From assembly GCA_023818895.1 (NCBI GenBank), contig JAMWCX010000001.1:117689-149688 (forward strand): a DNA stretch of 32,000 nucleotides, written 5' to 3'. Made by a program: the position numbers and the translations under genes. Shown one piece after another: positions 254-26,874 of the stretch. This stretch comes from Candidatus Omnitrophota bacterium. GTDB lineage: Bacteria > Omnitrophota > Gorgyraeia > 2-01-FULL-45-10. The notes under the pieces were generated by a model. The model saw nothing but the letters and a program-made list of their open reading frames with translations, ran no database searches and was not told the DNA's origin. The stretch's first letter is position 1. Every line of letters begins with the position of its first letter.

Positions 254-3200
254 CTACTTTTTTAACTTATGGTACTCTTGCAGACTCTTTACCGATGTCT
301 TCGGTTTCTTGATAAGGTTTTCTATGCCGTTTACAGAGGCCTGAGCGCCGGACAGAGTGGTGATAAGGGGGACGTTGTAGAGTATGGCGTGAGAGCGTAT
401 CTTAATCTCGTCCTCCTTTGTCGTTTTCCCAGCCGGTGTGTTTATTATAAGGTTTACCTTGTTGTCCTTGATCAGGTCTAGTATATTGGGTCTACCCTCG
501 TGTAGTTTTGGCAGGACCTGTACGTCTATATCGTTGGATTTAAGCGCGTCTGCTGTGCCGGAAGTGGCCATTATTTTGAATCCCAGGTCGGCTAGCTTCT
601 TGGCCACGAAAACTATGTTGCGTTTGTCCTGGTTCTTGACGCTTATGAAGACGTTGCCCTTTGTCGGAAGTTTCTGCCCGGCCGCTATCTGGCTTTTAGC
701 GTATGCCATGCCGAAGGTCGAATCTATCCCCATGACCTCGCCGGTTGATTTCATCTCGGGACCGAGGATTGCGTCTACTCCCGGAAACCGAATAAACGGG
801 AATACCGATTCTTTTACGGTGACGTAAGAAGGAACCTTTTCCTTTGTGAAGCCAAGTTCTTTCAATGTCTTGCCAAGCATTATTTTAGTTGCGAGCTTGG
901 CGAGCGGCACACCTATTGTTTTGGAGACGAACGGCACTGTCCTCGAAGCCCGGGGGTTGACCTCCAGTACATAGACGACGTTGTTTTTGACGGCGTACTG
1001 GACGTTCATGAGCCCCTTTACCTTGAGTTCCATTGCCATCGCATAGGTGTTTTTCTTGATCGTTTCGATGATGTCCTTGCCCAGAGTATGCGGGGGAAGG
1101 ACCATGGCGCTATCGCCGGAGTGTATGCCAGCTTCTTCTATATGTTCAAGTATGCCTCCTATGACGCACGTTTGGCCGTCCGCGATAGCGTCGACATCCA
1201 CTTCTATGGCGTCCTCCAGGAACTTATCGATAAGTATCGGTCTTTCCGGAGACGCTTCCACCGCCTTCTCCATATAATCGGCCAGGCTCTTTTCGTCATA
1301 GACTATCTCCATCGCTCTTCCGCCTAAGACAAACGAAGGCCGTACTACTACAGGATAGCCTATCTTCTTTGCCACTTCCTTTGCCTCCTCGAACGATGTG
1401 GCAGTGCCGTTATCGGGCTGGACGAGCTTAAGCTTCTTGAGCATTTGCTGGAAGAGTTTCCTGTCCTCGGCTATATCGATCGACTCAGGGCTTGTACCGA
1501 GGATATTGAGTCCCAGCTTATGTAGGGTGCCAGATATATTAAGAGGGGTCTGGCCGCCGAATTGTACGATAGCGCCGATAGGTTTTTCGATATCGACTAT
1601 GTTCATCACATCCTCTACGGTGAGCGGCTCGAAATATAGCTTATCGGAGGTGTCGTAATCGGTAGAGACAGTCTCGGGGTTGCAGTTTACCATTATCGAT
1701 TCGTATCCTTCTTCACGGAGCGCGTAAGAGGCGTGACAGCAGCAGTAGTCAAACTCTATACCCTGCCCTATCCTGTTGGGACCTCCGCCGAGTATCATCA
1801 CTTTCTTCTTGTTCGAGGATGGTTCGCTCTCGCACTTGGTTTCGTAGGTGGAGTAATAGTAAGGCCGTTCGGCCTTGAATTCGCCGCCGCAGGTATCCAC
1901 CAACTTGTAGGCGGCCTTGATGTTCTTATTTTTTCTTTCTTCTCTCACATCATTCTCCGTTGAGGTAACAAGGAAGGCGATCTGGGCGTCCGAAAATCCA
2001 TATCTTTTTGCTTTTAAAAGCAGATTTTGCGGAATCCTGATACCGTCCTTCTGGTTTTCGTTCCTGTATTTTTTAAGCTCTTCCTCGGTTTCCACTATAT
2101 TCCGTATATTGTCGATGAACCACCTATCGATCTTGCAAAGCTCATATATCTCTTCATTGGTCATACCGAGCTTTATCGCATACCGTATGTAGAAGAGGCG
2201 CTCATCGTTTGGAACGCGTATCTTCTCCTTTATCTCGTTTATAAGGTCAGCTGATGGATTTTTTAGCATGGAGTCGGTTATCTTATCGCGGCCGTCTGAA
2301 CCGAGGCCGAAGCGCCTGGTCTCCGTTGAGCGTATACCCTTCTGAAGGGCTTCCATGAAGTTTCTGCCGATAGACATCGCCTCTCCCACCGCCTTCATAG
2401 AGGTATTAAGAACGCGTGGGGTGCCCGGAAACTTCTCAAAGGCGAAGCGGCATATCTTGAATACGCAGTAATCTACCGTTGGCTCGAAAAATGCCGTTGT
2501 CCTGCCGGTCACCTGGTTCAGTACCTCAGGCAATGTTAGGCCCACGGCAAGCTTCGTGGCAACACGGGCTATCGGGAAGCCGGTTGCCTTTGAAGCGAGG
2601 GCAGAACTTCTGGAGAGGCGTGGGTTAACCTCGATTATGACTATGTGGCCATTGGCGGGGTTCTGGGCGAACTGGATATTGGCCCCTCCTCCGGTAACGC
2701 CGATCTTGCGTATTATCTTTTTTGATAGGTTGACGAATCTTGCGTATTCTTCAGCTGTCAGCGTCTGGGAGGGGGCGACTACTATTGAGTCGCCGGTATG
2801 TATGCCCATTGGATCCACGTTTTCCATAGAGGTTATCATGATTACGTTGTCAACGCAGTCCCTCATCACCTCGAACTCTATCTCCTTCCAGCCGAGCACG
2901 GACTGCTCGACCAATATCTGGTGAACCGGGCTTATTTCGAGGCCTTTCGCCAGGAATGCCTCGAGCTCCTCCTTATTATAAGCTATGGAACCGCCGGAAC
3001 CGCCGAGAGTGTAGGCGGGTCGCAGAATCAGCGGAAAACCTATAGAAAGGCCTATCTTCATTCCTTCTTCGACCGAACGCGCTATTCCGCTCTTCGGGAC
3101 GTCTATACCTATCTCGAGCATTGCCTTCTTGAAAAGCTCCCTGTCTTCGGCACGGGAAATTGCCTGGACGTTAGCGCCAATTGATTCGACGCCGTATTTT

Positions 3201-3526
3201 TTAAGGATACCCTCTTTCATGAGGAAATACGCCAGGTTTAATCCCGTTTGACCGCCGAGAGTAGGTAGTATCGCGTCCGGTCTCTCTTTTTTTATTATCT
3301 CGGTGACAGCTTCAACGGTGAGCGGCTCTATGTAGGTTGCGTCCGCCATATTAGGATCTGTCATAATGGTTGCGGGGTTTGAGTTTACCAGTATCGTGAA
3401 GTAGCCCTCTTCCTTCAGCGCCTTGCAGGCTTGCGAGCCGGAATAATCGAATTCGCATGCCTGGCCTATTATTATCGGCCCCGATCCTATCATCAATATC
3501 CTGTGTATGTCCTTACGCTTTGGCAT
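254..3526 (-). CDS. carB: Carbamoyl-phosphate synthase large subunit, full length (1,090 aa)
   Basis: There are two homologous ATP-grasp halves: [42 protein letters not shown] and [35 protein letters not shown]. An oligomerisation region and a C-terminal MGS-like allosteric domain are also present. The ATG overlaps the upstream carA stop by 14 nt. Confidence 0.97.
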
Positions 3527-4652
3527 ATGCCACCTCGCGATATGATTTGGAATTTTTCTTGATTTTTAGAATGCCACCCCCCTTTTTAGCCATGGAGAGA
3601 AATCGCGGAAAGACCTCATTTATCTCTTCAAAGCCAGGGCTTGCGGGGTTATATTGAACCGACATGAACTTCAAAGTTTTTGATTCCATCGCTTCGATGG
3701 TATCGTCGTTAACGTTGCGCAGAGTTATCGCCACGCTCTTGTTATTTTTGAGAGAGTTTTCATCAATGACATAAGAATGATTCTGCGCCGTTATTTCGCC
3801 CTTGAAAGAAGCGGCCGGCCGCACCGGATAATTTACGCCATGGTGGCCTATCTTGAGTTTTCTGAGCTTGCAACCCATGGCCATGCCGATTACCTGATGG
3901 CCTGTCGCGATGCCTAACATCGGTATTTTGCCAAGAACCGTTTTAACGGTATCCGCTACTTTCGGAAGGCTTATGTCGTTTTCGGGACCGTTCGAGATTA
4001 TCAGACCATCAACTCGCATGCTCAGGATATCGGAGGCGCTTGTATCATAAGGAAGCAATGTTACATTACAATTCAAAATTTTGAGTTGATGTATAAAACT
4101 ATTGAGCATTCCCAGATCCAGGACCGCTATGGTTGGCCCAGATGATCCTGTCTTAAGAGGCGTCGGATGCTTTACGGATATGGCTTTGATAAAGTCTTTG
4201 CCGTTTGTCTTCTGTTGGCTCAATTTCTTCAGCAAGGATTCTTTCTTGAGGTCCGTTGTGGATATGGCGCCGAACATCTCGCCTTTATCGCGTATAGTAA
4301 TAGCGAGCGTCCTGGTGTCGACCTCGCTTATAGCCGTAACTTTTTCTTCTTTGATAAAATCGCATAACGAGCCCTCTGCTTGCCAGTTTGAATATATTCT
4401 GGACTCTTCTTTTATGACAAGGCCCGCTATCCAACATCTCCTCGATTCATTGAATTTTTTGGCAATACCATAATTGCCTATCAACGGATAAGTAAGGACT
4501 AGGATCTTACCCGCATTGCTTGGGTCAGTCATAATCTCCTGGTATCTCACCACAGCGGTATTAAGCACAACCTCGCCGAACCTCTCTCCTGGCTCGCCGA
4601 TAGATATACCTTCGAACGAGCTACCGTCTTCAAGCACTATCATTGATTTCAT
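3513..4652 (-). CDS. carA: Carbamoyl-phosphate synthase small-subunit homolog with a degenerate glutaminase active site
   Basis: The N-domain is conserved ([38 protein letters not shown]). The class-I GATase motifs read GIATGHQ instead of GICLGHQ, and VQYNPASPG instead of FQ.HPEA.PGP. I place the start at ATG 4652 ([10 protein letters not shown]), preceded by GGGAGA at 4657-4662. The ORF-track start at 4667 is a TTG five codons upstream. Confidence 0.85.
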
Positions 4653-4684
4653 ATTTTCTCCCGTCAATCTTATTTATAAAACAA

Positions 4685-4935: not shown

Positions 4936-7900
4936 TTATGCGAATTCCTGTACCTTGTAGAGCCGCCTGAGGTTCTCGTAGACGGGGATCCTCTCTGCCT
5001 TGGGCAGGAAGATGAAGACGTTGCGGCAGTCCTTTAGGGCCTCGGCCCTCACAGCTGGGTTGTCGAGAGCGTCTTCTGCAGCCAAAACGTCTTTTAGGCC
5101 TAGCTTCAATGCCATCGCGAGCATTTCCGTGAGGTACATATAGCAGCTCTCGTCCAGCCCGCTTGCGTCGACGCCGGCGAGAAATGCCTTTTCGTCATTG
5201 CGCAAGTATTCAAATTCCCGCGAGATGACGGTGTCGCGAGATGCGAGAACGACTACCCGCGCCGCAGGGGTAATCTCTCTTGCCTTTGCTATTTCTGATA
5301 GTAGATCTTTGTCTTCGCGGTCAATGAATGTTATGCCGCGGTCATTACAGAAATTGCGGATCATGATTATGTGCTGATTAAGGTCGGCATATTGTGGTCC
5401 GTTTCCACGCATATAGCCTTTTATCCAGCTTGTGCCGAGAGCTAGTATTACAGGCTCTTTCTGGTTCGCGGCGCGGATGAGCTTGACGATATCGGAGAAC
5501 TTTACCGCTTCTATACGCGCAAGTTCCGCTCTCGGCTGTTCGTCTGGGCTGTAGCCTGACGTATCACTGGGTTGTAAAAAAGATCCTGTCTTGTTCTCAT
5601 CTTCTGTCAGGATAGTTTTCGAATCACTAATTTTTGCGTTTACTTCAGAGGCCGCTTGCAGGTGCCAGAGCTTGGTTTTTCTTCCGTCGATTTCGGCATT
5701 AACCTTAACCCATATACCCCGGAACGGGTAAAGATAATTCTGCTTAAGATTGCTGTTGGGAATTGGTGTTCGGAGCTTACCCGTATATCTATCTTCCAAC
5801 TCCTCAACGGTAGATGCGTAAAAATATTCGAAACCCGCTTTTTGGGCCAATCTGACAATATGCATTATAGCCCCTCTATTCCACTCGTAAAATCTTTGGC
5901 GTATTTCAAGAGGTTGGATGTTGCGGAATCCCAGGCTTGGCTGGACGTCATATATGAGTAGGGCGGGTTTTTTGTTGTGTTCAGTTATCCGCAGGCGTAT
6001 TACGCCGAAAAGGCCGCTGGAAGGCACATAGTCGTCAGATGCCATCATGTCGAGCGTGGCAAGTTCGGGATAGGCCTTTTTGGTATCTTCCGTAGGTTCG
6101 ATCGCGAATTCCTGCGGGATTTCATCGTATTCGATATACGCGCCAACCTTTTGCCCTTTGACAGTCCATGTGAAGTAAGGATCCTTTTCCAGTAGTTCCA
6201 GTAGTCTGGCGAACTCCGCTGATTTCCGCAGAGAATTACCCGTCTTAGGCAATAGTAAATGTTGTGTGCCGGCATCGTAGTGGGGCGGCGCGAAAGAGCG
6301 AAATAAATTCTCAAGAGACTCATCATCGATGGATGTCAGTTTCTTGTTGACAAGGCCGAAGAGCACCTGGGGCATTGTAACAATCTTTGAAAAATGCCTC
6401 TCCAAGGCATATAGCGCTCCGCCGAGACATCCTGAGTCCGGTTCGGGAGATTTTAATATTTCACCGTTCGCAAGATAGCGCACCTCTTCTCCGCCGAAAG
6501 GCGCCAGCGACGTAACGCCGAGTTTTTTCATAGTGGCTATGACAGGTTGCCAGCGCCTCTGGTCATATATACTGTCTGGCAGCGCTGCCTCCGTTGCCGG
6601 AATACCCCACCGCGGAACACTTGGTATATCGACGATTATAGCGCTCGTCGATATATTCTTTAAAACATTGTAATTGCCGCCCAGTATGAATACCACGCCT
6701 TTTTCGGCCGATATGGTTTTTCTTAAGTTTGACAGGTATATTTCCGCCTCTTTCTGATTTGCCATAACGATATCGTTTTTTTCACTGGCAGTAAAAATCT
6801 GCCCCGGATGCACCAAAAATGAAACCCGTCCACCTTGCTGCTTAATGGCCTTGCGTATAGCATCGGCGTGTTTGTCGATGTCCGCCCATTGGATAATGCG
6901 AGCCTCGGCCATCTGATACTTACTTACGATCTGATCGGCGCGCGCAAGATAGCCGGTTGACCGTAGGTAATCCAGGCCGCGACTATGGTCCGACTCGGGT
7001 ATCCTGTCGGTCCATTCATAGTCTTCCTCTTCACCATCATAGGGAACAAGATCGATCTCTCCCCATTTGACTGTGTGGACCAGATAATGGAATGGGATAT
7101 TTTCGTTTTTTCTGTACATACCAACAAGATATGCCTCATATCCAAGCTTATTTAATATATATGTGAGCATGGCTGAGTTGGCTAGACATGATTTCAAATC
7201 CATCGACTTGACTGCGTTTTTGATCTCGTTTATGATGTCATTGCTGTTGTCTGTGTTAAGTCCATCTCTGGAACCTGAAGACGTATTTGATATTTCAGAT
7301 ACATATGTGGTCAGAGATAGGGTGGATATATTATCATCCCTATCCCTTGCTCCATCTTTTATAGCGCTGCTTATCTTCCCGCGGATTCTCACCTCATTGG
7401 AATCTTTGAGGATGGGCTCTAATTCGGAGATATCCTTTATGGCTATCCAATTTTGGTGTTTATCATCGCCGGCTTTTTCATAGCTTATTTCTACGGATTC
7501 GAATATGCCGGCCCTGGCGCATCTAAGGAAAAATGCGGCATGTGTCTCATCAGGTATGCCATAATATTCGATAAATCTATTTGGGCCGGCCTGCGATGCA
7601 AGCCATCTTACTACCTCGACACCCAATCCCCGCCGCGTATCTTTCTTGTCAAATATGCGCAGGTTCTTAAATAGCGTTGTCTCGCCATTCACGTAAAACG
7701 CGTATAATGTGCCAACAAGCTTTTCGTTCTCTTCGAGAAAATACCACGATCTGTCAAAAGCTCGCAGCCTCAACCTCTTCTCCTCGGATATCTCTACATC
7801 TTCTTCTGGAAGCGTTGTCAGGGGAGCGCGATCAGTCTCTTCTGTCCATATGCGGAAACATCTTTTCAATGCCTTTATTATTTCTCTAGCCCCTTCCCTC

Positions 7901-10900
7901 TCTCCTAGGTACTGTGTTAGGCGTGGAATGCCCGGTGTATTCATGGAGAGCCATTCGAGCTGCATTACTATTTCAGCTATAATTTGGTTATTCATTTGGT
8001 AAAGCGGGTCATCTTCGTGCTGGAGAGAGTCGAATATCCGGTTGGCTATCACTTTGATAAGGCCGGGGTTTTGTTCACACGCCCTAACAAGGCCGTTTGT
8101 TATAAGCGCGTGATTGACGCAGCAAGGCATATAATGAGTATCATGAGCTAGGTTGACGATGACTTCAAGCGCGGTGCATATAGCTTCTTTTTGGCTTTCA
8201 GTGTTTAGTGAGGCGAGATACGCAGCCAATTCGCTATAACTGCGCTCGGCCATTTGTTTAATGTCGTTACGGGAAAGCGCGTCCCGCGTGCCTTCGGTAT
8301 GGTCCATGCCTCCCAAAAGCGGGTGCTCATCGTCGCGCTTAAGTTTCTCTTCGTAAGAAAGCCAGGTAGTGGCAGAGGTTATTTCCTTGATTTTTTGCCC
8401 TTCCTGCCAGTGTTCGATTATCCCGTCCCGTCGCATAGTGGCGAATATGGGATTGGGTGCGCCGTGGATGTTCGCCGTCCTCCCTTTTTCGTACAATATT
8501 ACGACATCCGCCTCTTTGCCGGAGGTTTGCTCTCTTACGCCGATCCTTCCCTCATCAAGATATGACACCAGATCTTGCGGTAGATCACAGGCCGTTATCT
8601 TGCCGTTCGAAACCTTTATCCTCCCAATATGTTTGCCATCCTGTGTAAATGGATCAAAATCGGCCTTCATCACAGCATATTCGACAGAGTCCGAATTTTC
8701 CACCTCCGGCTTCTTATCGCCGGTTTGTTTTATGAGCTTTCTTGCGATATGGACAAGTGCCGGATTAACGATGCCTGATATTCCGGAGTGGGACGCACCG
8801 TTCCTCCAGGCCGATTTGATGAGCCAGTTCAATACCGTCTCGCCTATTCCCTTGCCCCTGTCATTTACCCGGATCGTTGTTATGACATTCGTGCCCTTGT
8901 AATAATTGACCAGCCCAGCCTTCCTGCCGTCGGCTACAATCTCATATAACTTGATAGGGCCTCCTCGATGAGATGGTATTTTGATTTTTATGTCCATAGC
9001 GCCTGTCTTTATATTCCGCAGTTTGATGACATTCCACAGGATACCGTAATGATACTCTTCCCATATTGTTCCAAAAGCATCTGTTACGGTTCTTATTCGG
9101 CCATTTTTATCCTTTTCAATATACTCAAATGGCGCATGACCGTTATTTTGCCTCGCCACCCATTCAGGTGCTGCCATGTCATCTGGTATGCCTGGACCAT
9201 CTCCTTCGCCTGACGGCGGATAATCATATGCCTGTATTTTTTTATCGGCTTTTAAGCCATCAAAATAAGCCAGTCTAGAGGCGATGGCTTTCTCTATTTT
9301 CTCTTTGTCCTCGGTCAGCTTGTATTCGAGGATCATTTGGAGTTCCTTATCCATATCCATGTCACGAGGGGCTGTCTTTCTTATCTCATCGCGAAGATCC
9401 GCAAGCGTCTGGGCATCTTCGGGCCTTGCCAGGCCAATGTATTCTATAAGTAAATAGGTGTCTTTTTCGTGTATCGTCTCATCGAAGATCCTGACCGGTG
9501 TAAGATAGTTTTCTGTTAATACCGCAATTCGGCTTTTATAGGCATCAGAAGGAACTGTCGATATTTTCGACAGGCGTATCCATATTTTAGCAAGGGCTTC
9601 CATCGTGGCGAGCACATCCTCGCTTTTTTCTAATTTACCGATGTTAGATGTTATGACCTGCTCCATCTTGACAAGTTGTATCTCGGACGCCTTATCAATG
9701 TTTCGTATAAAGTTTGTAATCGAAAGCATGATATGTTGCTGTATTTCGGGTGAGAAGTTTTTGGCGCCATGGCCATCGTCAGCGGGCACGTCCCCTACAG
9801 AGAGGCTGTTGTGGTCCATGCCGCCAAGATACCAGTGCTCCTCATCCCGCTTTAGCATCTCATCACGGGTCAGATTTAAAAGACCGGTCTCTTCGGTCTT
9901 CCTGGCCAATATTATGTCAAGCTGCTGAGTCAGGTCAAACCTGCCTATATACTCTTTTGTCCTGTGTTCTATGCCGTAAAAGGCTCGAGTTCTCCTGATA
10001 GATGAGGTCACAAAGTCCGATTTTTCATCCGCTCTCATCTTCTTCCAGTTTTCCGTGGCCTCTTTGCTGTAATAGTCGGGATTAAAGGCTATATACAAAA
10101 TCCCGCCTCTTTTCAGTGTCTTGGCCGCTGCTGAAATGAGCGCCTCCGGGTCTTTAACATAAGCCATGCCGGAGGTGATTATCACGGCGTCAAAATGGTT
10201 TTCCCACTCGGCGGGAAACTCCGGATTTGCGTTTAGGTCCTGCACGATGCGTTGGGTAAGTTTCGCGTTGACATTAAGCTCGTCCCTGTTGAGCCCTATT
10301 CCGATGATCTCCGACGCGTTTACGGATTGCGGCACATATGTAAAAGCGCCGCTCATGAGATCAAGGACCCTTGCCCCTCGTGGCAGGTAGTCTTTGAGAT
10401 AGTCTTCTATGTATGTGGTGGCCGCATCTTCCAGATAGGGTATCGCGCTTTGCGTGTCAATTAAACTGAAAGATGATTTAACATAATGGAGGATAAGGCT
10501 GGTCCTCGTGCCTATTGCCGGCACATTTTCCATATGGAAATTTTCGGCCCCCAGACAGTGTTCTATAGTCTTGAGGCCGGCGCCCCCTCCCCATAGTCCC
10601 GCGTGAAATGCCTTCGTTCTAGATTCTGTGTTATCGTTTCTTGAGGCGGTATCGTAGATGTCTACGGTGGTATTTTTTGCCAAAGAATCTATTTTTATGT
10701 CGAGGAAGATCGGCTTGCTGAAATCGGCTCTGTTGCCGTGTGAAAACGCGTTTTTGATGGCCTCCGCGATTGGTGTCATGCTTTTGCCATCGGTGAACGC
10801 GTCATCGAGTTTTCCGGAGAGCTTCATGATGGCATCATAAAGATCATCATAAGCGGATTCTTTTTCGGCGAGATAAGCCAGATTCAAAGCCACTGCGTTA

Positions 10901-13900
10901 CCGTTTTTAATGGCCTCGATAATTTTATCCACATTTCCTATGTTTATGTCAATGACGTTCTTGCCCGTAACACTTTTTACGGAAGCGGCGGTAAAACTGC
11001 CAGATATAGATGATGACGGCTCGGCATCTCTTATTCCTGACCAGCCAGTGGGCTTTGCTTCCTGGGGCCTTTCGAGATCGCGGGCTATGGCGGGATCGGT
11101 GGTCTGTTGGGCCGCTGAATCCTGCTTTGTTGCTGAAGGCCTGAGCTCAAGGTTGCCGTTTTTCCTTACGATGAGGAGCTTGTCCCGACCGGCGGCGCCT
11201 ATAGCCGCAAGCATTCTTGTCGGTATCATCAAGCGATTGCCCTTCTGGAGGTTTGCTATAAATTCGCTGTTCGATCCTATGACCGTAAGCATTTCGTTAT
11301 TTTTGGTATCTGTAATAGACTTGCCGAGCAATGGTTTTATTTTCTGTAAGAATTGACCGGCGGGATAGACAATGATGCATCTATCGTAACTTTTGCAGAA
11401 AAGATAAAAAGGTGCCTTGAATTGTGAGGCGAGGCGGGCGGGTATGGCAACTCTGTTATTACTGTCGATAGTTACTTCTGCCAGAATTTCATCCTGGTTA
11501 TCGTTAAGTTGCGCCTTATCGTTCTCAATGGAGTTTTTCTTGTCTTTATGTGATAAGTCGGTGTTTTGGTTTTTGGAAGAAGCATTATTTATTATCACCC
11601 CGAGTATCGAAACTAAAACCAGCCATTTTGTCGATACTGGCATCGTTCTTGATGCTGCGCTGGTGTGTCGGTAGGGTTTCTCTGGTTGTCTGAGCTCAGG
11701 CGGATCTTCTGCTTGGACAGGATAGAGTAGTTGGCCGTTATGGATCATGAGTCTGCTGCCATGGGAATTGTTTGCTTTTATGAGCATAACGTTTTCTATC
11801 ATTCCAAGGTTTTGCAGAGCGCGGTAAATATTTTTTACGGTTCTTAGCCAATGGGGACTGAAGATGCCGCTGTTATCCTCTAAGGCATAGCTCCCTTCAA
11901 GAATATATATCCTTAATCCCATTTTCTCGGTAAAGTTTGCAGCGATAGAATCTTGTATTTCCTGTATAGTGCAAGCTGGCGTGAAATGGGCAAGATAGTG
12001 TTTTCCGTTTTGAGGATCGTCTATTGCTAAACCAGCGCATGTGCCGACGTTGTCGATGTATAAAGGGATATCGCGGGAGTTGATTTTGTAGCTCATCATC
12101 GGAACATATACCGCATTCGTGGTGACGTGGCATATCTCCATTGCTTCTGCTCTTCTCGAGAGGTCTTCCGATAAATTCCTGACCTCTATCGGCGTTATGG
12201 CGTAGTAGCGACAGTCCTTCATGGTATCGAGCAGGCCGAATGGTAGTAGTATCGCTATGGCGAGTATGATGCCGCTCGCAAAGGCGGCTGGCAACTTCAG
12301 CCATTTCAGATGTTGTGCGCGCTTATCACGCTCTCCCCTCTTTTTCTCATACGGCGTGGTTTCATTTTCTCCCTGCACAAAGAAATGGATGAGTTCGTTT
12401 TTTGTTCTGTGATGCCTAAATCCCGATATCGGCTCCTTGAATAGCCTGAAGCCCTCATGCCCCTGAAGTATGAATATGCCGCCGGTTTTTATCTCTTTGA
12501 GTTTATCCACGAGTGCATATTCGACATCGTCCGGAGCACCGCCCATAAAGTAGTAGACAGCATCATACCTACCCAGATCTTCTTTGAGAAAATCCCCCTG
12601 CTTTATAGTGACGCTGCCCGGTTTGATGAGCCCTTCTTTTATAAGTTCATCAAGCATCTCTTTGGCATATGAGACCTTAGACGGGTCCCACTCGACCATC
12701 GTGACCCTGAACCCGAAGACCGACGCCATGAAAAACCCGAAGCTTCCTAGGCCGCCCCCGAGATCTACTATATGTGCGCCTTCTTTGAGGCCCCATTCCC
12801 GCACCGTCGGTCCAACTATGTATTCACTCGAATCCATGAATATGCCGAACGCGTTTTTCGGATCCCTGGAGACATACGGATGTTTCTGTCTGTAGTGTTC
12901 CTTGAAATCTATGAATGCCCTCATCCTCAAATATTGGGCGCGGCTCAGGTTCTCCTTTATGCTGTTTATATACTTTTCTCTGAATAGTTCTTCTCTTCTT
13001 ATTCGGAGCTTTTCGTAGGGTATCGTGCCATCGAGTTCGGCTGAGATATTAAGGGCGTGATGAGCCCATGACGTGAGGGCAAAGAAAGCCACACTTTGAG
13101 GCATGCTCATGAATATCGGTGTGGCCATAACAACAGCATTTAGTAAAGCGATAACCGTTATTTTATACCAGGGCGGCGCCTGCGGCATATGCTTGGCCCT
13201 GAAATAATGCGAGGCAACGAAAAGCGACCATGTTATGGCCGATGCCCAAAGACTTCCGGTGATTGGTGTCAAAATAATGGCTAATTCCCAGAATAACGCC
13301 TGCTCTATGAAAACCTGGGACCAGCTCTTTATCTTTTGTGGCATTGGGAAGGATTCGTCTATCTTGTCGATGAGCCAGGCCAATAGCGGTATCTGTCCCC
13401 ATGCCTCTCCCTCACTAAAATAGTCGGTTTTTGCCTCATCTACATGTGATATAATATTGTCAATATCTTCGTGCAATCCTTTCAGATATGAGCATTTACC
13501 GAAATGCTTAACGAACCATTCTATTGTTTGAACAGGTTCGTAAATGGCAAGATGATTATCGAGAGTGATACCGTCTCGAAGGATTTTCCTGATAGCATCT
13601 GATGCTGCCTTAGACTGAGCCAGTTCTTCTAAAAGTTTTGAACGTGTCTCGCCCTTAAAGAGCTCTAAGATAACAGTTTCTGCCTGCCGGAATGTTGTTG
13701 GATTGAATCGTTGGACGAATGCTGTGAGCATTTGTTCCAGCCGAGCGCGGTTGAACTCATTTTTAGGTGGTGCCTTTTCATAGGCGTATATCTCTGATAA
13801 GAGAAACTCAAAATTGGCATTCATAACATCAGTTTGAAACCTGCTTGCATCATCACGTAGTGCCTGGAGCATTCTTAGTAGTTCTACTATTATATTGTTT

Positions 13901-15471
13901 AGGGCAATATAACGCGAAGCGACAGCTGTCCCGGGAATACAATATTTTTTGAAATCCGATGCCAGTAGGGAATTTAGCCTTCTTAGAGTTGATTCCCGCG
14001 ATAAGAGTACTTTCCAGAAGCTTTCCAAGTCCACCGCCCATCCGATTTTTTTGACCTCGTTAAGATATTTTCTTATATCGGCGTATGTATCCTCAAATAT
14101 GCGTTCAAGGATTTTAATGGTAGGAATGGCGTGATGCGTCTCAGGGTCATTTTCATCATTGAGGTAATCATCGACGTCATCATTGGCGTCATCATCGGGT
14201 GGCTGGGTAATATGTGGCGTCCCCGGCCCCCAGAGGAGGTTCTCGCGATCGTCTTTTTCGTATTCCTTCTCTTTTACATTTGCTGATGCGTTGATGTCGG
14301 ACCTTTGAGCAGGAGGCTTTGTCTTAGAATGACCCAAAAACTTGTCATCGACTTTAGATATGTTTTTGTCATCCTTATCGGCTAAGTTGTGGGTTTTACT
14401 CATCGCGGTGTCTTCGTTTGTTTGTATTAAGGGCATGACCTTTACATAGACATTTGTGCCGTCACCGAGCGGTATCGTCATATCGGCATCTGTGTTTTTG
14501 TCCTCAAGATAATATTTGTAATAATAAGCCTTTACTCCGTTTCTATATAGTGGCAGATAATACGCCTTCTCTTCTTTGTTATAAAATAGTTCGTTTATCG
14601 CCAACCCTGCAAGGAGAGGATCGTTCTTGTTAGCGCGTTTTATATCTACTAAGGATATGTGGCGTTTTATTTCCGGGATAAGAGTATATTGAGATATACT
14701 ATATTGTAGATATTTTCCTATCAGGATACTTATATCCCGAAAGACAGCTTTCTCGCGGAATTCTTTATCGTCAGCGTACGCTATGGCAATAAATTCATTC
14801 TCGGCGAATATCTCAGAGGAGTCGTTTTTTTTAGGGATGCGAAGTTGCGTCTTTGTACCGTCAGCAAAAGGTCGCCAGCTTATCGAGCCGCCTAATCTGC
14901 GCATTGTCAGAGATGCGTCAATAACTCCGGTACCATTGCCTCCAAAATGTTTCTTGAGGTGCTGGGACGACCTTTCCCTTTTTCTGTAAGCTGGAACACC
15001 TTCCTTTAGAAGCTCTATTGGCTTGCCATTATCGATTACATTTATTATCAGTTCGTCAGCGTCATAGTACGCCTCAATTGTGACTACACCTACAAATGAT
15101 ACAATCCCCTTATTGCGCATCTCTTCGAATTTATCAATTATAGAATCATACGAGTTTTTCATTATTTCCATGAGCACATCTTCCATTAGGGGGTTTGTGG
15201 TAAGGCGCTGATATAGCGGGTTTTTCTCTACTTTTGTCTTAAAGTCCGTTTTTGAACGCAAAAATGACGATTCGATTTCCGGGTTGAAATTTATCCGAAT
15301 CTCCGTCCTGGCACCATTTGCAACAGATAGTATAGGGCTAAATCTGCTGGGAGGGGCAAGGTGGTATGTTGCCTCATTGGTCGCAAAACTTAACTCGTTT
15401 AATATCAGGGCAAGAATCAGGAATACAGATATTATTTTTAAAGGCAGGCTTAGTTTGTAATAACTTAACAT
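4936..15471 (-). CDS. Giant multidomain protein (3,511 aa), function unknown. Domain order: signal/anchor, GHKL ATPase, CPBP-like 4-TM block, SAM-MTase, CheD-like hydrolase, MraZ-like domain, GHKL ATPase, SAM-MTase, 2x (helical + GNAT-like), transglutaminase-like core, unassigned C-terminal third
   Basis: A single uninterrupted frame. Motifs seen, by aa range:
- aa 1-30: KLSLPLKIISVFLILALILNELSFA.
- aa 95-214: EIMKNSYDS / VIDNGKP / GGNGTGV...LGGSISWRPFADGTKTQLRIP.
- aa 715-812: EQALFW / FVASH / HHALN in hydrophobic helices.
- aa 880-1005: HIVDLGGGLG / YDAVYYF / TGGIFILQG.
- aa 1113-1251: NVGTCAGLAIDDPQNGKHYLAHFTP.
- aa 1331-1446: IDSNNRVAIPARL and LQKGNRLMIPTRML.
- aa 1560-1663: AEAIKNAFSHG / GGGAGLKTIE / GTRTSLIL.
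- aa 1683-1800: RVLDLMSG / FDAVIITSGMAYVKDP / KRGGILYIAF.
- aa 2140-2250: RGKGIGETVLNWL.
- aa 2575-2665: RRGLGVEVVRWL.
- aa 2750-2812: SCLANSAML...PFHYLVH...EIDLVP. Confidence 0.9.
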   Translation of the reverse strand: MLSYYKLSLPLKIISVFLILALILNELSFATNEATYHLAPPSRFSPILSVANGARTEIRINFNPEIESSFLRSKTDFKTKVEKNPLYQRLTTNPLMEDVLMEIMKNSYDSIIDKFEEMRNKGIVSFVGVVTIEAYYDADELIINVIDNGKPIELLKEGVPAYRKRERSSQHLKKHFGGNGTGVIDASLTMRRLGGSISWRPFADGTKTQLRIPKKNDSSEIFAENEFIAIAYADDKEFREKAVFRDISILIGKYLQYSISQYTLIPEIKRHISLVDIKRANKNDPLLAGLAINELFYNKEEKAYYLPLYRNGVKAYYYKYYLEDKNTDADMTIPLGDGTNVYVKVMPLIQTNEDTAMSKTHNLADKDDKNISKVDDKFLGHSKTKPPAQRSDINASANVKEKEYEKDDRENLLWGPGTPHITQPPDDDANDDVDDYLNDENDPETHHAIPTIKILERIFEDTYADIRKYLNEVKKIGWAVDLESFWKVLLSRESTLRRLNSLLASDFKKYCIPGTAVASRYIALNNIIVELLRMLQALRDDASRFQTDVMNANFEFLLSEIYAYEKAPPKNEFNRARLEQMLTAFVQRFNPTTFRQAETVILELFKGETRSKLLEELAQSKAASDAIRKILRDGITLDNHLAIYEPVQTIEWFVKHFGKCSYLKGLHEDIDNIISHVDEAKTDYFSEGEAWGQIPLLAWLIDKIDESFPMPQKIKSWSQVFIEQALFWELAIILTPITGSLWASAITWSLFVASHYFRAKHMPQAPPWYKITVIALLNAVVMATPIFMSMPQSVAFFALTSWAHHALNISAELDGTIPYEKLRIRREELFREKYINSIKENLSRAQYLRMRAFIDFKEHYRQKHPYVSRDPKNAFGIFMDSSEYIVGPTVREWGLKEGAHIVDLGGGLGSFGFFMASVFGFRVTMVEWDPSKVSYAKEMLDELIKEGLIKPGSVTIKQGDFLKEDLGRYDAVYYFMGGAPDDVEYALVDKLKEIKTGGIFILQGHEGFRLFKEPISGFRHHRTKNELIHFFVQGENETTPYEKKRGERDKRAQHLKWLKLPAAFASGIILAIAILLPFGLLDTMKDCRYYAITPIEVRNLSEDLSRRAEAMEICHVTTNAVYVPMMSYKINSRDIPLYIDNVGTCAGLAIDDPQNGKHYLAHFTPACTIQEIQDSIAANFTEKMGLRIYILEGSYALEDNSGIFSPHWLRTVKNIYRALQNLGMIENVMLIKANNSHGSRLMIHNGQLLYPVQAEDPPELRQPEKPYRHTSAASRTMPVSTKWLVLVSILGVIINNASSKNQNTDLSHKDKKNSIENDKAQLNDNQDEILAEVTIDSNNRVAIPARLASQFKAPFYLFCKSYDRCIIVYPAGQFLQKIKPLLGKSITDTKNNEMLTVIGSNSEFIANLQKGNRLMIPTRMLAAIGAAGRDKLLIVRKNGNLELRPSATKQDSAAQQTTDPAIARDLERPQEAKPTGWSGIRDAEPSSSISGSFTAASVKSVTGKNVIDINIGNVDKIIEAIKNGNAVALNLAYLAEKESAYDDLYDAIMKLSGKLDDAFTDGKSMTPIAEAIKNAFSHGNRADFSKPIFLDIKIDSLAKNTTVDIYDTASRNDNTESRTKAFHAGLWGGGAGLKTIEHCLGAENFHMENVPAIGTRTSLILHYVKSSFSLIDTQSAIPYLEDAATTYIEDYLKDYLPRGARVLDLMSGAFTYVPQSVNASEIIGIGLNRDELNVNAKLTQRIVQDLNANPEFPAEWENHFDAVIITSGMAYVKDPEALISAAAKTLKRGGILYIAFNPDYYSKEATENWKKMRADEKSDFVTSSIRRTRAFYGIEHRTKEYIGRFDLTQQLDIILARKTEETGLLNLTRDEMLKRDEEHWYLGGMDHNSLSVGDVPADDGHGAKNFSPEIQQHIMLSITNFIRNIDKASEIQLVKMEQVITSNIGKLEKSEDVLATMEALAKIWIRLSKISTVPSDAYKSRIAVLTENYLTPVRIFDETIHEKDTYLLIEYIGLARPEDAQTLADLRDEIRKTAPRDMDMDKELQMILEYKLTEDKEKIEKAIASRLAYFDGLKADKKIQAYDYPPSGEGDGPGIPDDMAAPEWVARQNNGHAPFEYIEKDKNGRIRTVTDAFGTIWEEYHYGILWNVIKLRNIKTGAMDIKIKIPSHRGGPIKLYEIVADGRKAGLVNYYKGTNVITTIRVNDRGKGIGETVLNWLIKSAWRNGASHSGISGIVNPALVHIARKLIKQTGDKKPEVENSDSVEYAVMKADFDPFTQDGKHIGRIKVSNGKITACDLPQDLVSYLDEGRIGVREQTSGKEADVVILYEKGRTANIHGAPNPIFATMRRDGIIEHWQEGQKIKEITSATTWLSYEEKLKRDDEHPLLGGMDHTEGTRDALSRNDIKQMAERSYSELAAYLASLNTESQKEAICTALEVIVNLAHDTHYMPCCVNHALITNGLVRACEQNPGLIKVIANRIFDSLQHEDDPLYQMNNQIIAEIVMQLEWLSMNTPGIPRLTQYLGEREGAREIIKALKRCFRIWTEETDRAPLTTLPEEDVEISEEKRLRLRAFDRSWYFLEENEKLVGTLYAFYVNGETTLFKNLRIFDKKDTRRGLGVEVVRWLASQAGPNRFIEYYGIPDETHAAFFLRCARAGIFESVEISYEKAGDDKHQNWIAIKDISELEPILKDSNEVRIRGKISSAIKDGARDRDDNISTLSLTTYVSEISNTSSGSRDGLNTDNSNDIINEIKNAVKSMDLKSCLANSAMLTYILNKLGYEAYLVGMYRKNENIPFHYLVHTVKWGEIDLVPYDGEEEDYEWTDRIPESDHSRGLDYLRSTGYLARADQIVSKYQMAEARIIQWADIDKHADAIRKAIKQQGGRVSFLVHPGQIFTASEKNDIVMANQKEAEIYLSNLRKTISAEKGVVFILGGNYNVLKNISTSAIIVDIPSVPRWGIPATEAALPDSIYDQRRWQPVIATMKKLGVTSLAPFGGEEVRYLANGEILKSPEPDSGCLGGALYALERHFSKIVTMPQVLFGLVNKKLTSIDDESLENLFRSFAPPHYDAGTQHLLLPKTGNSLRKSAEFARLLELLEKDPYFTWTVKGQKVGAYIEYDEIPQEFAIEPTEDTKKAYPELATLDMMASDDYVPSSGLFGVIRLRITEHNKKPALLIYDVQPSLGFRNIQPLEIRQRFYEWNRGAIMHIVRLAQKAGFEYFYASTVEELEDRYTGKLRTPIPNSNLKQNYLYPFRGIWVKVNAEIDGRKTKLWHLQAASEVNAKISDSKTILTEDENKTGSFLQPSDTSGYSPDEQPRAELARIEAVKFSDIVKLIRAANQKEPVILALGTSWIKGYMRGNGPQYADLNQHIIMIRNFCNDRGITFIDREDKDLLSEIAKAREITPAARVVVLASRDTVISREFEYLRNDEKAFLAGVDASGLDESCYMYLTEMLAMALKLGLKDVLAAEDALDNPAVRAEALKDCRNVFIFLPKAERIPVYENLRRLYKVQEFA

Positions 15472-15482
15472 AGATTGAATAA

Positions 15483-15510
15483 ATTATATCACACAATCGT
15501 GTTAAGTCAA
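15483..15510 (-). promoter_or_regulatory. Near-consensus sigma70-type promoter directly abutting the giant ORF start
   Basis: On the minus strand: TTGACT (15510-15505), a 16-nt spacer, then TATAAT (15488-15483), preceded by TGA (TGnTATAAT). Only 11 nt (ttattcaatct) separate the -10 from ATG 15471, and there is no purine-rich Shine-Dalgarno sequence. Confidence 0.5.
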
Positions 15511-22459: not shown

Positions 22460-24130
22460 TTAGGGATGGTCGTAAGTGGAATAGTAATACGGCGTGAAGG
22501 CCTGGAATTCGGCGGCGCAGGTATCGACAAGCTTAAAATCCGGAATTATATTATGGGACTTCCGCAACGCCCGTATGGAGGATTCATCTGTGCCGATTAG
22601 GCGCGCGAGCTGGGCGTCGCTAAAACCCATCTCCTTGGCGCGGGAGAGCGTCTTTACGGTAATGGATTCTTTTTTTTCAACTATTTCTTTCTCAAGTTCT
22701 ATGACCTCCAGTATGTTATGGAGAAACCAGCGGTCTATTTTTGTTATCTCGTATATCTCCTCTATGCCCATGCCGGCCCTCAAGGCGTCCCCTATATAAA
22801 ATATCCTTTCCGCGTTAGGTGTTCTTAACTTATCTCGTATCAACCGCGCCTGGTCCTCATTTGTTTTCACCTTGCCTAACTCGTCCTTCTTAAAGAGGAT
22901 GCTTTCCAGCCCCGCTTTTTTAATCTCGAGCGAACGAAGGCCTTTCTGCAGCGCCTCTTTAAAGGTCCTGCCTATTGACATGGCTTCGCCCACAGATTTC
23001 ATTGATATGGTAAGCGTCGGGTCGGCTGAGGGGAACTTCTCGAAGGTGAACCGGGGTATCTTTACCACACAGTAATCGATTGACGGTTCGAAACAGGCAG
23101 GAGTCTTTTGGGTTATGTCGTTCGGTATCTCATCGAGAGTGTAGCCGACAGCAAGCTTTGCCGCTATCTTGGCTATCGGGAAACCCGTGGCTTTAGATGC
23201 CAGCGCGGAGCTTCTGGAGACCCGCGGGTTCATCTCGATAACCACCATCCTGCCGGTGTCGGGGTTGACCGCGAACTGGATATTTGAGCCGCCAGTGGCC
23301 ACGCCTATTTCACGTATGCAGGCAATAGCCGCGTTCCGCATTTGCTGGTATTCCCTATCGGTAAGTGTCTGGGCCGGCGCTACGGTAATCGAGTCGCCCG
23401 TATGGATTCCCATAGGATCTAAGTTTTCTATCGAACAGATTATGACAACGTTGTCCTTGGCATCTCTCATCACCTCGAGCTCAAATTCTTTCCAACCTAT
23501 GACGGATTCTTCTATGAGAATTTCGCCTATCATGCTTGAGTCAAGGCCTATCTTAGCCAGGTGCTTGAATTCCTCCATATTGTACGCTATGCTGCCGCCG
23601 GTGCCTCCGAGTGTGAAACTCGTCCGAATTATTATCGGAAATCCGATTGACTCGGCTGCGGAGATGGCTTCTTTTAGCGTGTAGGCCCTTTCGCTTCTTG
23701 GAAGATCGAGACCGATGCGCTGCATAGCTTCTTTAAAGAGCTGCCTATCCTCAGCTTTCTTGATGGCTTTAATATCCGCGCCTATAAGTTCTACTTTATA
23801 TTTTCGAAGTACGTCAGTACGGGCGAGACCGACGGCCGTGTTGAGCGCTGTCTGTCCTCCCAGAGTCGGAAGAAGCGCGTCAGGTCTTTCTTTCTCTATT
23901 ATCTTAGCTACGGTTTCAACAGTAATTGGTTCTACATAGGTGCTGTCCGCCATTTCGGGATCCGTCATTATGGTGGCGGGGTTAGAGTTTACCAGCACGA
24001 CGTGATAACCTTCGGATTTTAGCACCTTGCATGCCTGGGAGCCAGAATAGTCAAATTCGCATGCCTGGCCTATAACTATCGGACCGGCGCCAATTATCAG
24101 GATTTTTTTAATGTCTTTACGCTTGGGCAT
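22460..24130 (-). CDS. carB: Carbamoyl-phosphate synthase large subunit, N-terminal half only (556 aa)
   Basis: It is collinear with residues 1 to about 560 of the full-length carB at 254-3526 ([42 protein letters not shown]...). It ends at ...[12 protein letters not shown]-stop, which is the boundary before the second ATP-grasp half. Its start overlaps the carA stop by 14 nt. Confidence 0.9.
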
Positions 24131-25208
24131 ATCTATTTCGCTTCATCATTTCCACGAATTTTCCAAAAAGATATTCGGCGTCCTTCGGGCCGGGGCAAGC
24201 TTCGGGGTGGAACTGGACGGAAAATATGGGCAGCTTCTTGTGCCGCATTCCTTCTAGCGTTTGGTCGTTGAGGTTTATGTGTGTTATCTCGATCTCTTTT
24301 TTGTTCAGCGTATCTATATCAACGCAGAAGCCGTGGTTCTGCACGCTTATAGCGACCTTGCCGGTCTTCAGGTCCTTGACGGGCTGGTTTCCGCCATGAT
24401 GACCGAAATTTAGCTTGAAGGTTTTGCCTCCAAAAGCTTGGCCGAGCATCTGGTGGCCGAGACAGATGCCGAATATAGGAACTTTGCCAATAAGATCGCG
24501 GGTCGTCTCCACTATATATGGCAGCGCAGCCGGGTCGCCGGGGCCATTTGAAAGCATCAGGCCGTTGGGTTTTAGCGAAAGTATCTCTTTGGCTGTGGCG
24601 GTGGCGGGAACTACCGTCACCTTACAGTTATTTTTAGCGAGTTCCCGCATTATATTGAATTTCGCGCCGCAGTCGAGAACGACAACATTAAGCGCTCCGT
24701 TACGGTTCCATTCATAAGGCTTTTCCGGTGTGACTTCCCTCACAAGATCGCGGCCGATTAGGCCGGCGGAGGCCTTTGCCTTGGCGACGAGACTTTCCTC
24801 GTCCGTATCGGTTGTTGATATCACCGCTTTCATTGCTCCGGCCTGCCTGATATGAAGCGTTAGACTGCGCGTATCGACGCCTTCGATTCCGACGATACCG
24901 TTTTGCTTAAGGTATTCGTCAAGCGTTTGTCTTGACCTCCAGTTGGAAGCTATCTTTGAGTATTCCTTTACGACAAAACCTTCGACAAACGGTTTTCTGG
25001 ATTCGACATCTTCGTCATTTATACCGTAATTGCCGATAAGCGGATAGGTCATGGCGACTATTTGCCCCTTGTAGGATGGGTCAGTGAGGATTTCCTGGTA
25101 GCCCGTTATACTGGTATTGAAGACGACCTCTCCGTACCGCTCACCATACGCTCCGAACGATATGCCTCTGTATACATTTCCATCTTCCAACGCGAGTATT
25201 GCTTTCAT
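24117..25208 (-). CDS. carA: Carbamoyl-phosphate synthase small subunit (glutamine amidotransferase), canonical
   Basis: At 363 aa it keeps an intact triad context: [17 protein letters not shown] and [14 protein letters not shown]. Confidence 0.95.
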
Positions 25209-25265: not shown

Positions 25266-26874
25266 TTATCGTACTTTCCTATGGAGTGAGGCCTTTATGA
25301 AGTCCCTAAAGAGTGGGTGAGGCCTATCGGGTTTTGATTTAAATTCCGGATGATACTGTACAGCTATGAAAAAGGGGTGGTCCTTTATTTCGACCATTTC
25401 TACCAGATTTTTGTTCGGATATATACCGGAAAATACCATACCGGCTTCACCTAGAAGGGAGCGGTATTTATTGTTAAACTCATAGCGGTGTCGGTGTCTT
25501 TCTAGTATCAAGTCCTTGCCATATGCGCGATAGGCAATCGTTCCTTTTTTTATTTCGCAGGGATAAACGCCGAGGCGCATTGTTCCTCCCATGTCTCTTA
25601 TGCTCTTCTGTTCCTCCAATAGGCTGATTACAGGGTGAGGCGTATCTTGATCGAATTCCGTGGAATTAGCTCCTTTAAGACCGCATTTATTGCGCGCGAA
25701 CTCGATTACCGCGCATTGCATGCCAAGGCATAGGCCGAAGAAGGGTATCTTGTGCTCACGGGCATACCCGATCGCCTTTATCTTGCCTTCGATGCCGCGA
25801 TAACCAAAACCTCCGGGAACGAGTATCCCGTTTACGCCTTTGAGGAGCTTCTCGCCTCCGTCCTTTTCAACCTCCTCTGAATCCACTTTTTTTATCTCAA
25901 CGCGGGTATTATTGTATATGCCTCCATGTGTCAGCGCTTCATATATAGACTTATAGGCGTCCTGAAGTCCGATATACTTTCCGACTACCGCTATCTTTAC
26001 GGTATGCTTAGGATTAAGAATACGGTTTACGACCTTATTTTGCCAGTTCTTTAAATCTGTAGTTTTTGAACGAAGTTCTAAATGAGCAAGGATGAACTTA
26101 TCGAGCCCTTGCTGCTTGAATATCAGCGGGACCTGGTATATTGTCTGCGCGTCAGGCGCTTCTATGACAGCCTCTTTACGAACATTGCAGAGAAGAGAGA
26201 TCTTTTCCTTCATGTCGTCTGAGAGGGGTTTTTCGGTGCGGCAGATAAGGATATCCGGCTGGATGCCTATCTCTCGCAGTTTTCCCACGGAATGCTGGGT
26301 CGGTTTGGTCTTTATTTCACCGGCTGATTTTACGTAAGGTATCAGCGTGAGGTGTATGTAGAGGGCATTGCGATATCCGACGTCCAACCGGAACTGCCGG
26401 GCCGCTTCCAGGAATGGCAAACTCTCTATGTCGCCGACTGTCCCGCCGATCTCGACTATCATGATGTCAGCGGCCGAGACCTGTGCGGCCTTCTTGATGC
26501 GCTCCTTGATCTCGTCGGTTATGTGGGGTATAACCTGTTATGGTCTTTCCAAGATAGTCGCCGCGCCTCTCTCTTGAGATGACTGAATTGTAGACCTGGC
26601 CGGTCGTCACGTTGTTAAATTTTGTCATCTGGGCGTTGGTGAACCGCTCATAGTGGCCAAGGTCGAGGTCCGTCTCTGCGCCGTCCTCGGTAACATATAC
26701 CTCGCCGTGCTGATAGGGGTTCATAATGCCGGGGTCTACGTTGATATACGGATCGAGTTTGATGAGCGAGACTTCAAGGCCTCGTGACTCAAGTATCTTG
26801 CCTATAGATGCAGAGGCAATGCCCTTGCCAAGACTTGAAATGACGCCGCCCGTCGTGAATATGTATTTTGTCAT
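25266..26874 (-). pseudogene. pyrG: CTP synthase (pyrG) split by a single-nucleotide insertion, or a sequencing error
   Basis: ORF 26467-26874 encodes [25 protein letters not shown]...RGDYLGKTI and then runs out of frame. Shifting by one base at about 26538-26539 restores [44 protein letters not shown], which continues into ORF 25266-26462. The observed sequence ATAACAGGTTATA would be in frame as ATACAGGTTATA. Confidence 0.85.

Follow-up and report, generated by a model that had tools for sequence, protein, structure and literature searches.

The 32,000-nucleotide stretch analysed here (the window), taken from the genome of a Candidatus Omnitrophota bacterium (assembly GCA_023818895.1, contig JAMWCX010000001.1, positions 117,689 to 149,688), carries on its minus strand an uninterrupted open reading frame (ORF; positions 4936..15471) for a protein of 3,511 amino acids (aa), designated P0001, of which residues ~1328-1452 (positions 11116..11490, minus strand) almost certainly represent a true embedded, diverged homologue of the regulator MraZ. 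P0001 is a membrane-anchored multi-module Omnitrophota protein, and the MraZ-like module is a discrete, shuffled building block recruited into it, additional to the canonical mraZ gene of the same genome. MraZ is normally a free-standing DNA-binding regulator of about 150 aa encoded at the head of the dcw cluster, and to our knowledge it has been treated as a strictly stand-alone protein of this size, assembled on its own promoter into rings of 8-12 subunits. The module hence represents a fold already known, in an architecture that is new for it and recurs within one phylum. Concerning its role, we lean modestly towards a cytoplasmic, membrane-tethered, nucleic-acid-binding module of MraZ fold within a giant protein.

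Homology to MraZ was recognized by profile and by pairwise comparisons. The excised segment of aa 1311-1456 matches the Pfam family PF02381 with an E-value of 7.3e-7 and 29.5 bits (cut-off 23), its first half alone scoring 24.4 bits and the six-frame search of the genome giving 23.5 bits, and the MraZ model TIGR00242 matches the module with 37.1 bits over model positions 7-97 of 144, so that hidden Markov models from both collections yield significant hits. Using phmmer, the module retrieves MraZ chains only among PDB sequences (9qlr, 9sx6, 9qlg and 1n0e, with E-values of 2e-4 to 9e-4), in alignments that run across both motif positions, and an exhaustive phmmer search with aa 1326-1452 in 1.84e9 representative proteins retrieves the free-standing MraZ proteins P0009-P0014 of 142-198 aa, with E-values of 7.5e-5 to 9e-4 over query residues 7-121. 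Two other matches of the exhaustive search, P0006 (a eukaryotic protein with FN3 and phosphatase domains, 11 stretches) and the repeat protein P0008, were dismissed as artefacts caused by repeats. When scored with a profile of 34 canonical MraZ proteins, the three modules of P0001 type (P0001 and the two sister proteins described below) reach 56.5, 50.9 and 24.8 bits, with the highest value belonging to P0001. The original prediction of a MraZ-like domain within a giant membrane protein, read from the DNA letters, is borne out by these Pfam and phmmer results and by the structural superposition described below. The peptide quoted in that prediction is present in the minus-strand ORF, with its residue numbers requiring correction from 1331-1446 to E1332 to P1445, and the module is internal as claimed, but it does not follow immediately upon a transmembrane helix, as ~30 polar residues (aa 1298-1327) intervene. 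The module of P0001 is not an MraZ equivalog, since it does not reach the TIGR00242 equivalog cut-off (98.35 bits) and departs from MraZ in the second DxxxR motif, in the C-terminal helix and in genomic context.

Two DxxxR-type motifs characterize the module, and both were read correctly from the beginning, the first as intact and the second as altered. The first motif, D1336-S-N-N-R1340 (positions 11452..11466, minus strand), was placed by alignment to 9qlr, and its D and R are invariant in the multiple alignment, while the second, Q1409-K-G-N-R1413 (positions 11233..11247, minus strand), placed by alignment to MraZ, is degenerate due to the loss of Asp; the corresponding peptide reads STSRR in P0002 and EKGGR in P0007. 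Residues shared by every canonical and embedded sequence of the alignment are limited to D, R and P in the first motif and R in the second. In MraZ of M. genitalium, the base contacts of Lys13, Arg15 and Arg86 are essential (PMC12957436). Arg15 corresponds to R1340 and Arg86 to R1413, and both arginines are kept in all three modules of P0001 type, with the Lys13 equivalent being Lys in P0002 and P0007 and N1338 in P0001. The module is furthermore strongly basic (isoelectric point 9.83, 18 K/R versus 10 D/E), as are those of P0002 and P0007 (isoelectric points 9.95 and 10.11), the net charge of the three ranging from +6 to +9. The canonical EIW signature reads LELR in P0001, and the module ends with LELRP before passing straight into a S/T/Q-rich linker.

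The first reading of the sequence had included both halves of MraZ in the module. This holds insofar as full-length alignments and the structure model cover both halves, but the second half is nearly devoid of a sequence signal of its own. A profile built from the second halves of canonical MraZ gives this half 5.0 bits, a value reached by 1 of 500 shuffles, and the half adds ~7 bits to the score against the full-length canonical profile. Aligning half 1 with half 2 by hhalign gives the expected register (TIDSNNRVAIP versus NLQKGNRLMIP) with weak significance (P 0.005, probability 7%). The double nature of the module thus rests mostly on collinearity and on the structure model.

The AlphaFold2 model of the module (predicted local distance difference test score, pLDDT, of 78.9; predicted template-modelling score of 0.71) was computed with the module aligned to 28 canonical MraZ sequences of Omnitrophota and is biased towards MraZ by this input; the beta-beta-alpha-beta-beta unit is seen in it twice. 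The single-sequence model is poor, with a pLDDT of 50.7. In Foldseek comparison of the alignment-guided model with the PDB, the top 16 matches are all MraZ (E-value 3e-8, template-modelling score 0.70, ~120 columns), and the next match has an E-value of 0.16, so that the expected superposition on solved MraZ structures was obtained, with a model guided by canonical MraZ. As modelled, the module has the MraZ fold, that is, an internally duplicated SpoVT/AbrB-like swapped-hairpin cradle.

A separate canonical mraZ, whose presence it had been suggested to check, indeed exists in this genome of 1.56 megabases in 5 contigs. It encodes a protein of 149 aa (G000:C5:668433-668864), both halves of which match PF02381 strongly (79 and 73 bits), and is followed by rsmH and then by a ftsL-like gene, on the same contig as the giant gene at a different place. 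Because the genome has this separate mraZ-rsmH-ftsL operon, the embedded module constitutes an extra copy. The canonical protein shares 62-89% identity with its counterparts in 80 metagenome-assembled genomes, mostly labelled Candidatus Omnitrophota or Omnitrophica, which assigns the genome to this phylum, and BLASTP aligns it with the module over 120 residues at 21% identity (E-value 1e-5). Upstream of the canonical gene lies a TTGACA/TATACT promoter followed by GTGG-N6-GTGG-N6-GGGA boxes (L001 1960-2040, G000:C5), which correspond by their sequence to the expected MraZ autoregulatory operator.

Closely related modules are present in two sister proteins, P0002 (5,638 aa; 1,367 bits in a whole-length search with P0001) and P0007 (3,398 aa; MBN2453875.1, annotated as 'hypothetical protein' of Candidatus Omnitrophica), the latter found by exhaustive phmmer. 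The module of P0001 is 48-50% identical to that of P0002 and 41% identical to that of P0007, the flanking linkers of the three are unalignable on both sides, and the modules occupy different positions in the three chains. BLASTP comparison of P0001 and P0002 yields ten blocks, rearranged in order, among them the MraZ block (P0001 1328-1453, P0002 3283-3407; 48% identity, E-value 1e-32), whose alignment ends at the module borders. The linker KPGSSDME, present nine times in P0002, borders the MraZ module of this protein exactly on both sides. All nine near-identical copies delimit modules within aa 1235-4848 of P0002, and the module after the copy at aa 2672 opens, deep in the chain, with a typical Sec signal peptide (...LATLFVAANAYA/QEQ); as a sequence pattern, this arrangement looks like polyprotein punctuation. 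The C-terminal module of P0001 is also found in P0004, P0007 and P0015-19. The MraZ module is lacking in the giant proteins P0003, P0004 and P0015-P0019, which have the C-terminal or GNAT modules in common with P0001. Among 40 relatives, including a same-genus genome (99% complete), neither an orthologue of the giant protein nor one of the module was found; a word-based search for giant proteins with the module region found nothing, and degenerate-pattern scans of genome and metagenome contig collections, based on the two-module alignment, retrieved no relative.

Embedded modules are not confined to this genome, as revealed by a six-frame PF02381 search of 401 sampled Omnitrophota genomes. PF02381 is matched in 392 of them, mostly exactly twice, corresponding to the halves of the canonical gene in ORFs of ~145-196 aa, a few of which are cut by contig ends. 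Three or more matches were observed in 27 genomes, of which 25 were examined, and MraZ-type modules in long ORFs are present in at least 16 of the 401 genomes (~4%, this genome counted). The long ORFs measure 375, 784, 846, 1,736, 2,137, 2,588, 3,218, 3,515, 3,940, 4,718, 7,925, 9,333, 11,701, 25,408, 26,689 and 42,020 aa. Among the other 15 embedded copies, 14 were excised and 14 of 14 score above the Pfam cut-off (24.7-49.2 bits), with the copy of genome G397 passing from the six-frame search only (37.9 bits). Some of the embedded copies are full double modules and others single halves. Such single halves (DxxGR...GAGxxFE[IV]W) occur at loci L103, L104, L109 and L114 (genomes G261, G344, G031 and G365), and they would form a barrel only by pairing, which hints at dimerisation of giant proteins.

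A single family comprising all embedded modules was considered and rejected, as the profile of the three modules of P0001 type scores the other embedded modules below 10 bits, indicating separate lineages. In the tree, two embedded groups are well supported, namely P0001/P0002/P0007 (100/98) and G041/G061/G131/G182 (99/92), and a third is weaker; with its long branches and open forks, the tree gives no firm relation between embedded groups and canonical MraZ and does not separate a derivation of the module from mraZ of the phylum from other origins. Elsewhere among the embedded lineages, every DxxxR-type motif that can be recognized retains its arginine, the second motif of G167 not being recognisable. 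In the 26,689-aa ORF, a receiver domain of response regulators (56.5 bits) lies directly upstream of the MraZ-like module (locus L110, G167:C23:8048-11362, aa 383-548 of the piece), a putative pair arranged as in a response regulator. The place after a receiver domain is the usual site of a DNA-binding output domain. For the modules at L106, L107 and L112 (G061, G131 and G041), the flanking peptides are of RSExR type (RSEVR...RSELR, RSELR...RAELR and ...RSENR, respectively), so that the lineage of these three genomes has a punctuation motif different from KPGSSDME.

In P0001, a Kyte-Doolittle scan located hydrophobic helices at ~aa 7-25, 717-809, 1063-1081 and 1281-1297. The last of these transmembrane helices (positions 11581..11631, minus strand) lies upstream of the module and is connected to it by a N/K/D/S-rich linker (aa 1298-1327; positions 11491..11580, minus strand), which is unconserved in relatives. 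On the other side, a S/T/A/Q/P-rich linker of ~55 residues (~aa 1453-1505; positions 10957..11115, minus strand) leads to a GHKL-ATPase-like module and methyltransferase pair. The helix at 1063-1081 is preceded by five K/R within 15 residues and followed by a net charge of -1, and because of the positive-inside rule the first methyltransferase is placed in the cytoplasm, residues 1082-1280 outside and everything past 1297 again in the cytoplasm. This agrees with cofactor needs, as the modules dependent on S-adenosylmethionine, ATP and acetyl-CoA come to lie on the same predicted side as the residues beyond 1297. The number of helices in the block 717-809 is ambiguous, which leaves some doubt about topology, and the hydropathy scan found no strong hydrophobic helix in P0007. 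Taken together, the module of P0001 is probably cytoplasmic, as judged from sequence.

Nucleic-acid binding is suggested by the retained arginines, the basic charge, the adjacency of receiver domain and MraZ-like module in a relative and the likely location; that the module binds DNA in particular appears to us nearly, but not quite, an even proposition. According to this proposal, the module would be exposed on the cytoplasmic face ~30 residues from the last transmembrane helix and would bind nucleic acid, most likely DNA. It could thereby bring DNA to a membrane-bound enzyme assembly or, much as in ToxR or CadC, serve as the output domain of a regulator tethered to the membrane. Lacking the MraZ oligomer interface, it would not build a ring of 8-12 subunits by itself, and any cooperativity would require the giant protein to associate with itself.

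Several observations weigh against this proposal or against the homology on which it is built. The identity of the module to canonical MraZ is low (16-33%), and with the whole 3,511-aa protein as query PF02381 scores 20.3 bits, which is under the cut-off. The bias of the structure model has been mentioned. The second half alone has no match in Pfam, and that of P0007 is not distinguishable from shuffles when compared with the profile of canonical second halves. In the motifs themselves, the Asn of P0001 at the position of the essential Lys13 and the exchange of the second Asp for Q in P0001 and for S or E in the sister modules speak against DNA binding as in MraZ. The last ~25-30 residues of canonical MraZ are missing from all three embedded copies (P0001, P0002 and P0007) in the multiple alignment, and the C-terminal helix of MraZ helps to build the octamer, nonamer or dodecamer ring (PMC12957436). 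Canonical MraZ requires four subunits on four GTG boxes, so that a single tethered module would have little specificity, and no obvious MraZ-type repeated GTG boxes were seen on inspection upstream of the giant gene. An N-terminal signal-like segment in P0001, conserved in P0002, renders the topology ambiguous. Finally, the flanks of embedded modules across the phylum vary, including an aldose epimerase and an HD domain and being mostly unannotated.

In an alternative reading, the MraZ/AbrB-type cradle would be a protein-protein or self-association module, by which giant proteins dimerise, form arrays or dock a partner or peptide with no nucleic acid bound, and we regard this as unlikely, though deserving of weight. 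It would fit with the single halves found among embedded copies elsewhere, which need a partner half for the barrel, as well as with the degenerate second motif and the lost Lys13 of P0001. Cradle-loop barrels related to AbrB are also known as substrate-binding domains, for example VatN-N and the Cdc48 N-domains. However, every embedded lineage of full length retains the two arginines that contact bases, and the charge of the module is strongly basic; moreover, the double module is a pseudo-dimer that folds without a partner, and the MraZ oligomerisation helices are partly missing. Another possibility, improbable in our judgement, is that the giant is a polyprotein that would be cut at its linkers, with the module freed or left as a short stub anchored by the transmembrane helix and serving as a second MraZ-type regulator, by which a transcriptional response would be tied to expression of the giant gene. 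The position of the P0002 module between two KPGSSDME copies, the Sec-type signal peptide at the start of another module of P0002 after a linker, and the RSExR-type flanks in G061, G131 and G041 point in this direction, and cleavage of Omnitrophota giant proteins has been proposed as a hypothesis (10.1101/2023.11.21.568195). Against it, cleavage has been observed nowhere, neither KPGSSDME nor RSExR is found in P0001, whose module flanks have no recurring motif, and the domain search detected no protease domain in P0001. The further idea that translation of a giant gene directly delivers a transcription factor, as a cassette either released or retained in a short membrane-bound stub, which might for example reprogramme genes for division or the envelope while the bacterium attaches to another cell as its host or prey, has a similarly low probability.

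It is very improbable that the module is functionless, serving as a spacer or left as an inert remnant of a captured mraZ copy in decay. The degenerate second half and the lost canonical features could be seen as decay, and the absence of an orthologue of the giant protein from the nearly complete same-genus genome suggests rapid turnover, but the module is 41-50% identical across three rearranged giants with unalignable adjacent linkers, its hallmark residues are invariant, and independent embedded lineages persist across the phylum. A chance or compositional likeness, or an assembly chimera of mraZ with a long ORF, is effectively refuted. Although the low identities and the whole-protein Pfam score below cut-off could suggest it, E-values are significant in a library of 1.84e9 proteins, in which the two repetitive eukaryotic matches, P0006 and P0008, were recognized as spurious; P0005 and P0021, from independent assemblies, show the same junctions, homologous modules occur in P0002 and P0007, and the canonical mraZ of the genome differs in sequence from the module.

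The reading of the module as a tethered, nucleic-acid-binding MraZ-type domain can be compared with known systems. Canonical MraZ (PF02381, TIGR00242; 1N0E, 9QLG and 9SZ7) shares with the module the fold, the collinear arrangement of two beta-beta-alpha-beta-beta units, the first DxxxR, both base-contacting arginines (the equivalents of Arg15 and Arg86) and the basic character. It differs in being a free protein of ~150 aa whose gene opens the dcw cluster ahead of rsmH, whereas the module comprises aa 1328-1452 of a 3,511-aa protein outside dcw and has lost the second Asp and the C-terminal oligomerisation helix, with Lys13 replaced by Asn and EIW by LELR. Domains of SpoVT, AbrB and MazE have the cradle fold and the DxxxR-type arginine in common with the module, and the fusion of the cradle to a GAF sensor domain in SpoVT is a precedent for joining this fold to other domains; however, these are dimerising single halves, in contrast to the covalent double domain of MraZ type in P0001, and their fusions are small two-domain regulators rather than multi-enzyme giants. 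ToxR, CadC and TcpP resemble the proposed arrangement in working principle only, with a DNA-binding domain tethered at the cytoplasmic membrane face via a transmembrane helix and a short linker, but this domain is a winged helix located N-terminal to a single transmembrane helix, enzyme modules are absent and there is no homology. The very long proteins described from Omnitrophota (10.1101/2023.11.21.568195; 10.64898/2026.06.07.730766, therein a 'signal-transduction / regulatory' domain community) are similar to P0001 in host phylum, membrane anchoring, mosaic of shuffled modules and content of methyltransferase, HATPase-like and GNAT-like domains, with P0001 (3,511 aa) standing at the short end of the class. 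MraZ or AbrB domains are not mentioned in the main texts of these two reports or in one supplementary file of the latter, and a full-text literature search for MraZ together with the word stem Omnitroph returned nothing on embedded MraZ, as judged from titles and abstracts.

These results show that the MraZ fold has been used repeatedly as an in-chain module, in proteins of 375 to more than 40,000 residues and in at least two well-supported sequence lineages, possibly a third, with the DNA-reading arginines kept and the ring-forming helix lost. If such modules bind DNA, the giant proteins of Omnitrophota would hold nucleic-acid-binding or regulatory elements beyond enzymes and adhesins, and this would bear on the role of these giants and on whether they are processed. 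Being small and soluble, the module is one of the few parts of a giant protein directly testable in vitro.

Apart from the MraZ-like module, the domain search revealed in P0001 two class-I methyltransferases and weak GHKL-ATPase-like and GNAT-like matches, and a block at ~aa 1487-1662, downstream of the module, matches other giant ORFs. The peptide WGPGTPHITQP is identical in P0001 (aa 415-424; window ~14200-14229) and in P0007 (aa 3041-3050), at unrelated positions between modules, and is a candidate junction motif, a further candidate being KRD[DE]EH-x-LGGMDH at aa 1874 and aa 2378 of P0001. At the 5' end of the gene, a promoter-like site (TTGACT-16 nucleotides-TATAAT; window 15472-15510, minus strand) ends 11 nucleotides before the ATG at 15471, and no Shine-Dalgarno sequence precedes this start, a configuration in which translation of the giant may begin on an almost leaderless mRNA. 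NCBI annotates the gene of P0001 with a start 70 codons further in (P0021, 3,441 aa); the longer ORF of 3,511 aa is favoured because aa 9-47 of P0001 are homologous to the N-terminus of P0002.

The locus of P0001 is not a dcw cluster, and its neighbours are housekeeping genes, including two carA/carB sets, pyrG, gdhA, a gltD-like gene, Dus, GH3 and DUF1846. The CTP synthase gene pyrG (window 25266-26874, minus strand) is divided between two neighbouring ORFs that lie in different frames, one of 135 aa covering profile positions 1-111 and the other of 398 aa covering positions 136-265 and the GATase domain, due to either a frameshift or an assembly error. The two carbamoyl-phosphate synthetase gene sets (window 254-4667 and 22460-25208, both minus strand) differ in that one contains a full-length carB of 1,090 aa with a carA-like gene, and the other a half-size carB of 556 aa with a second carA.

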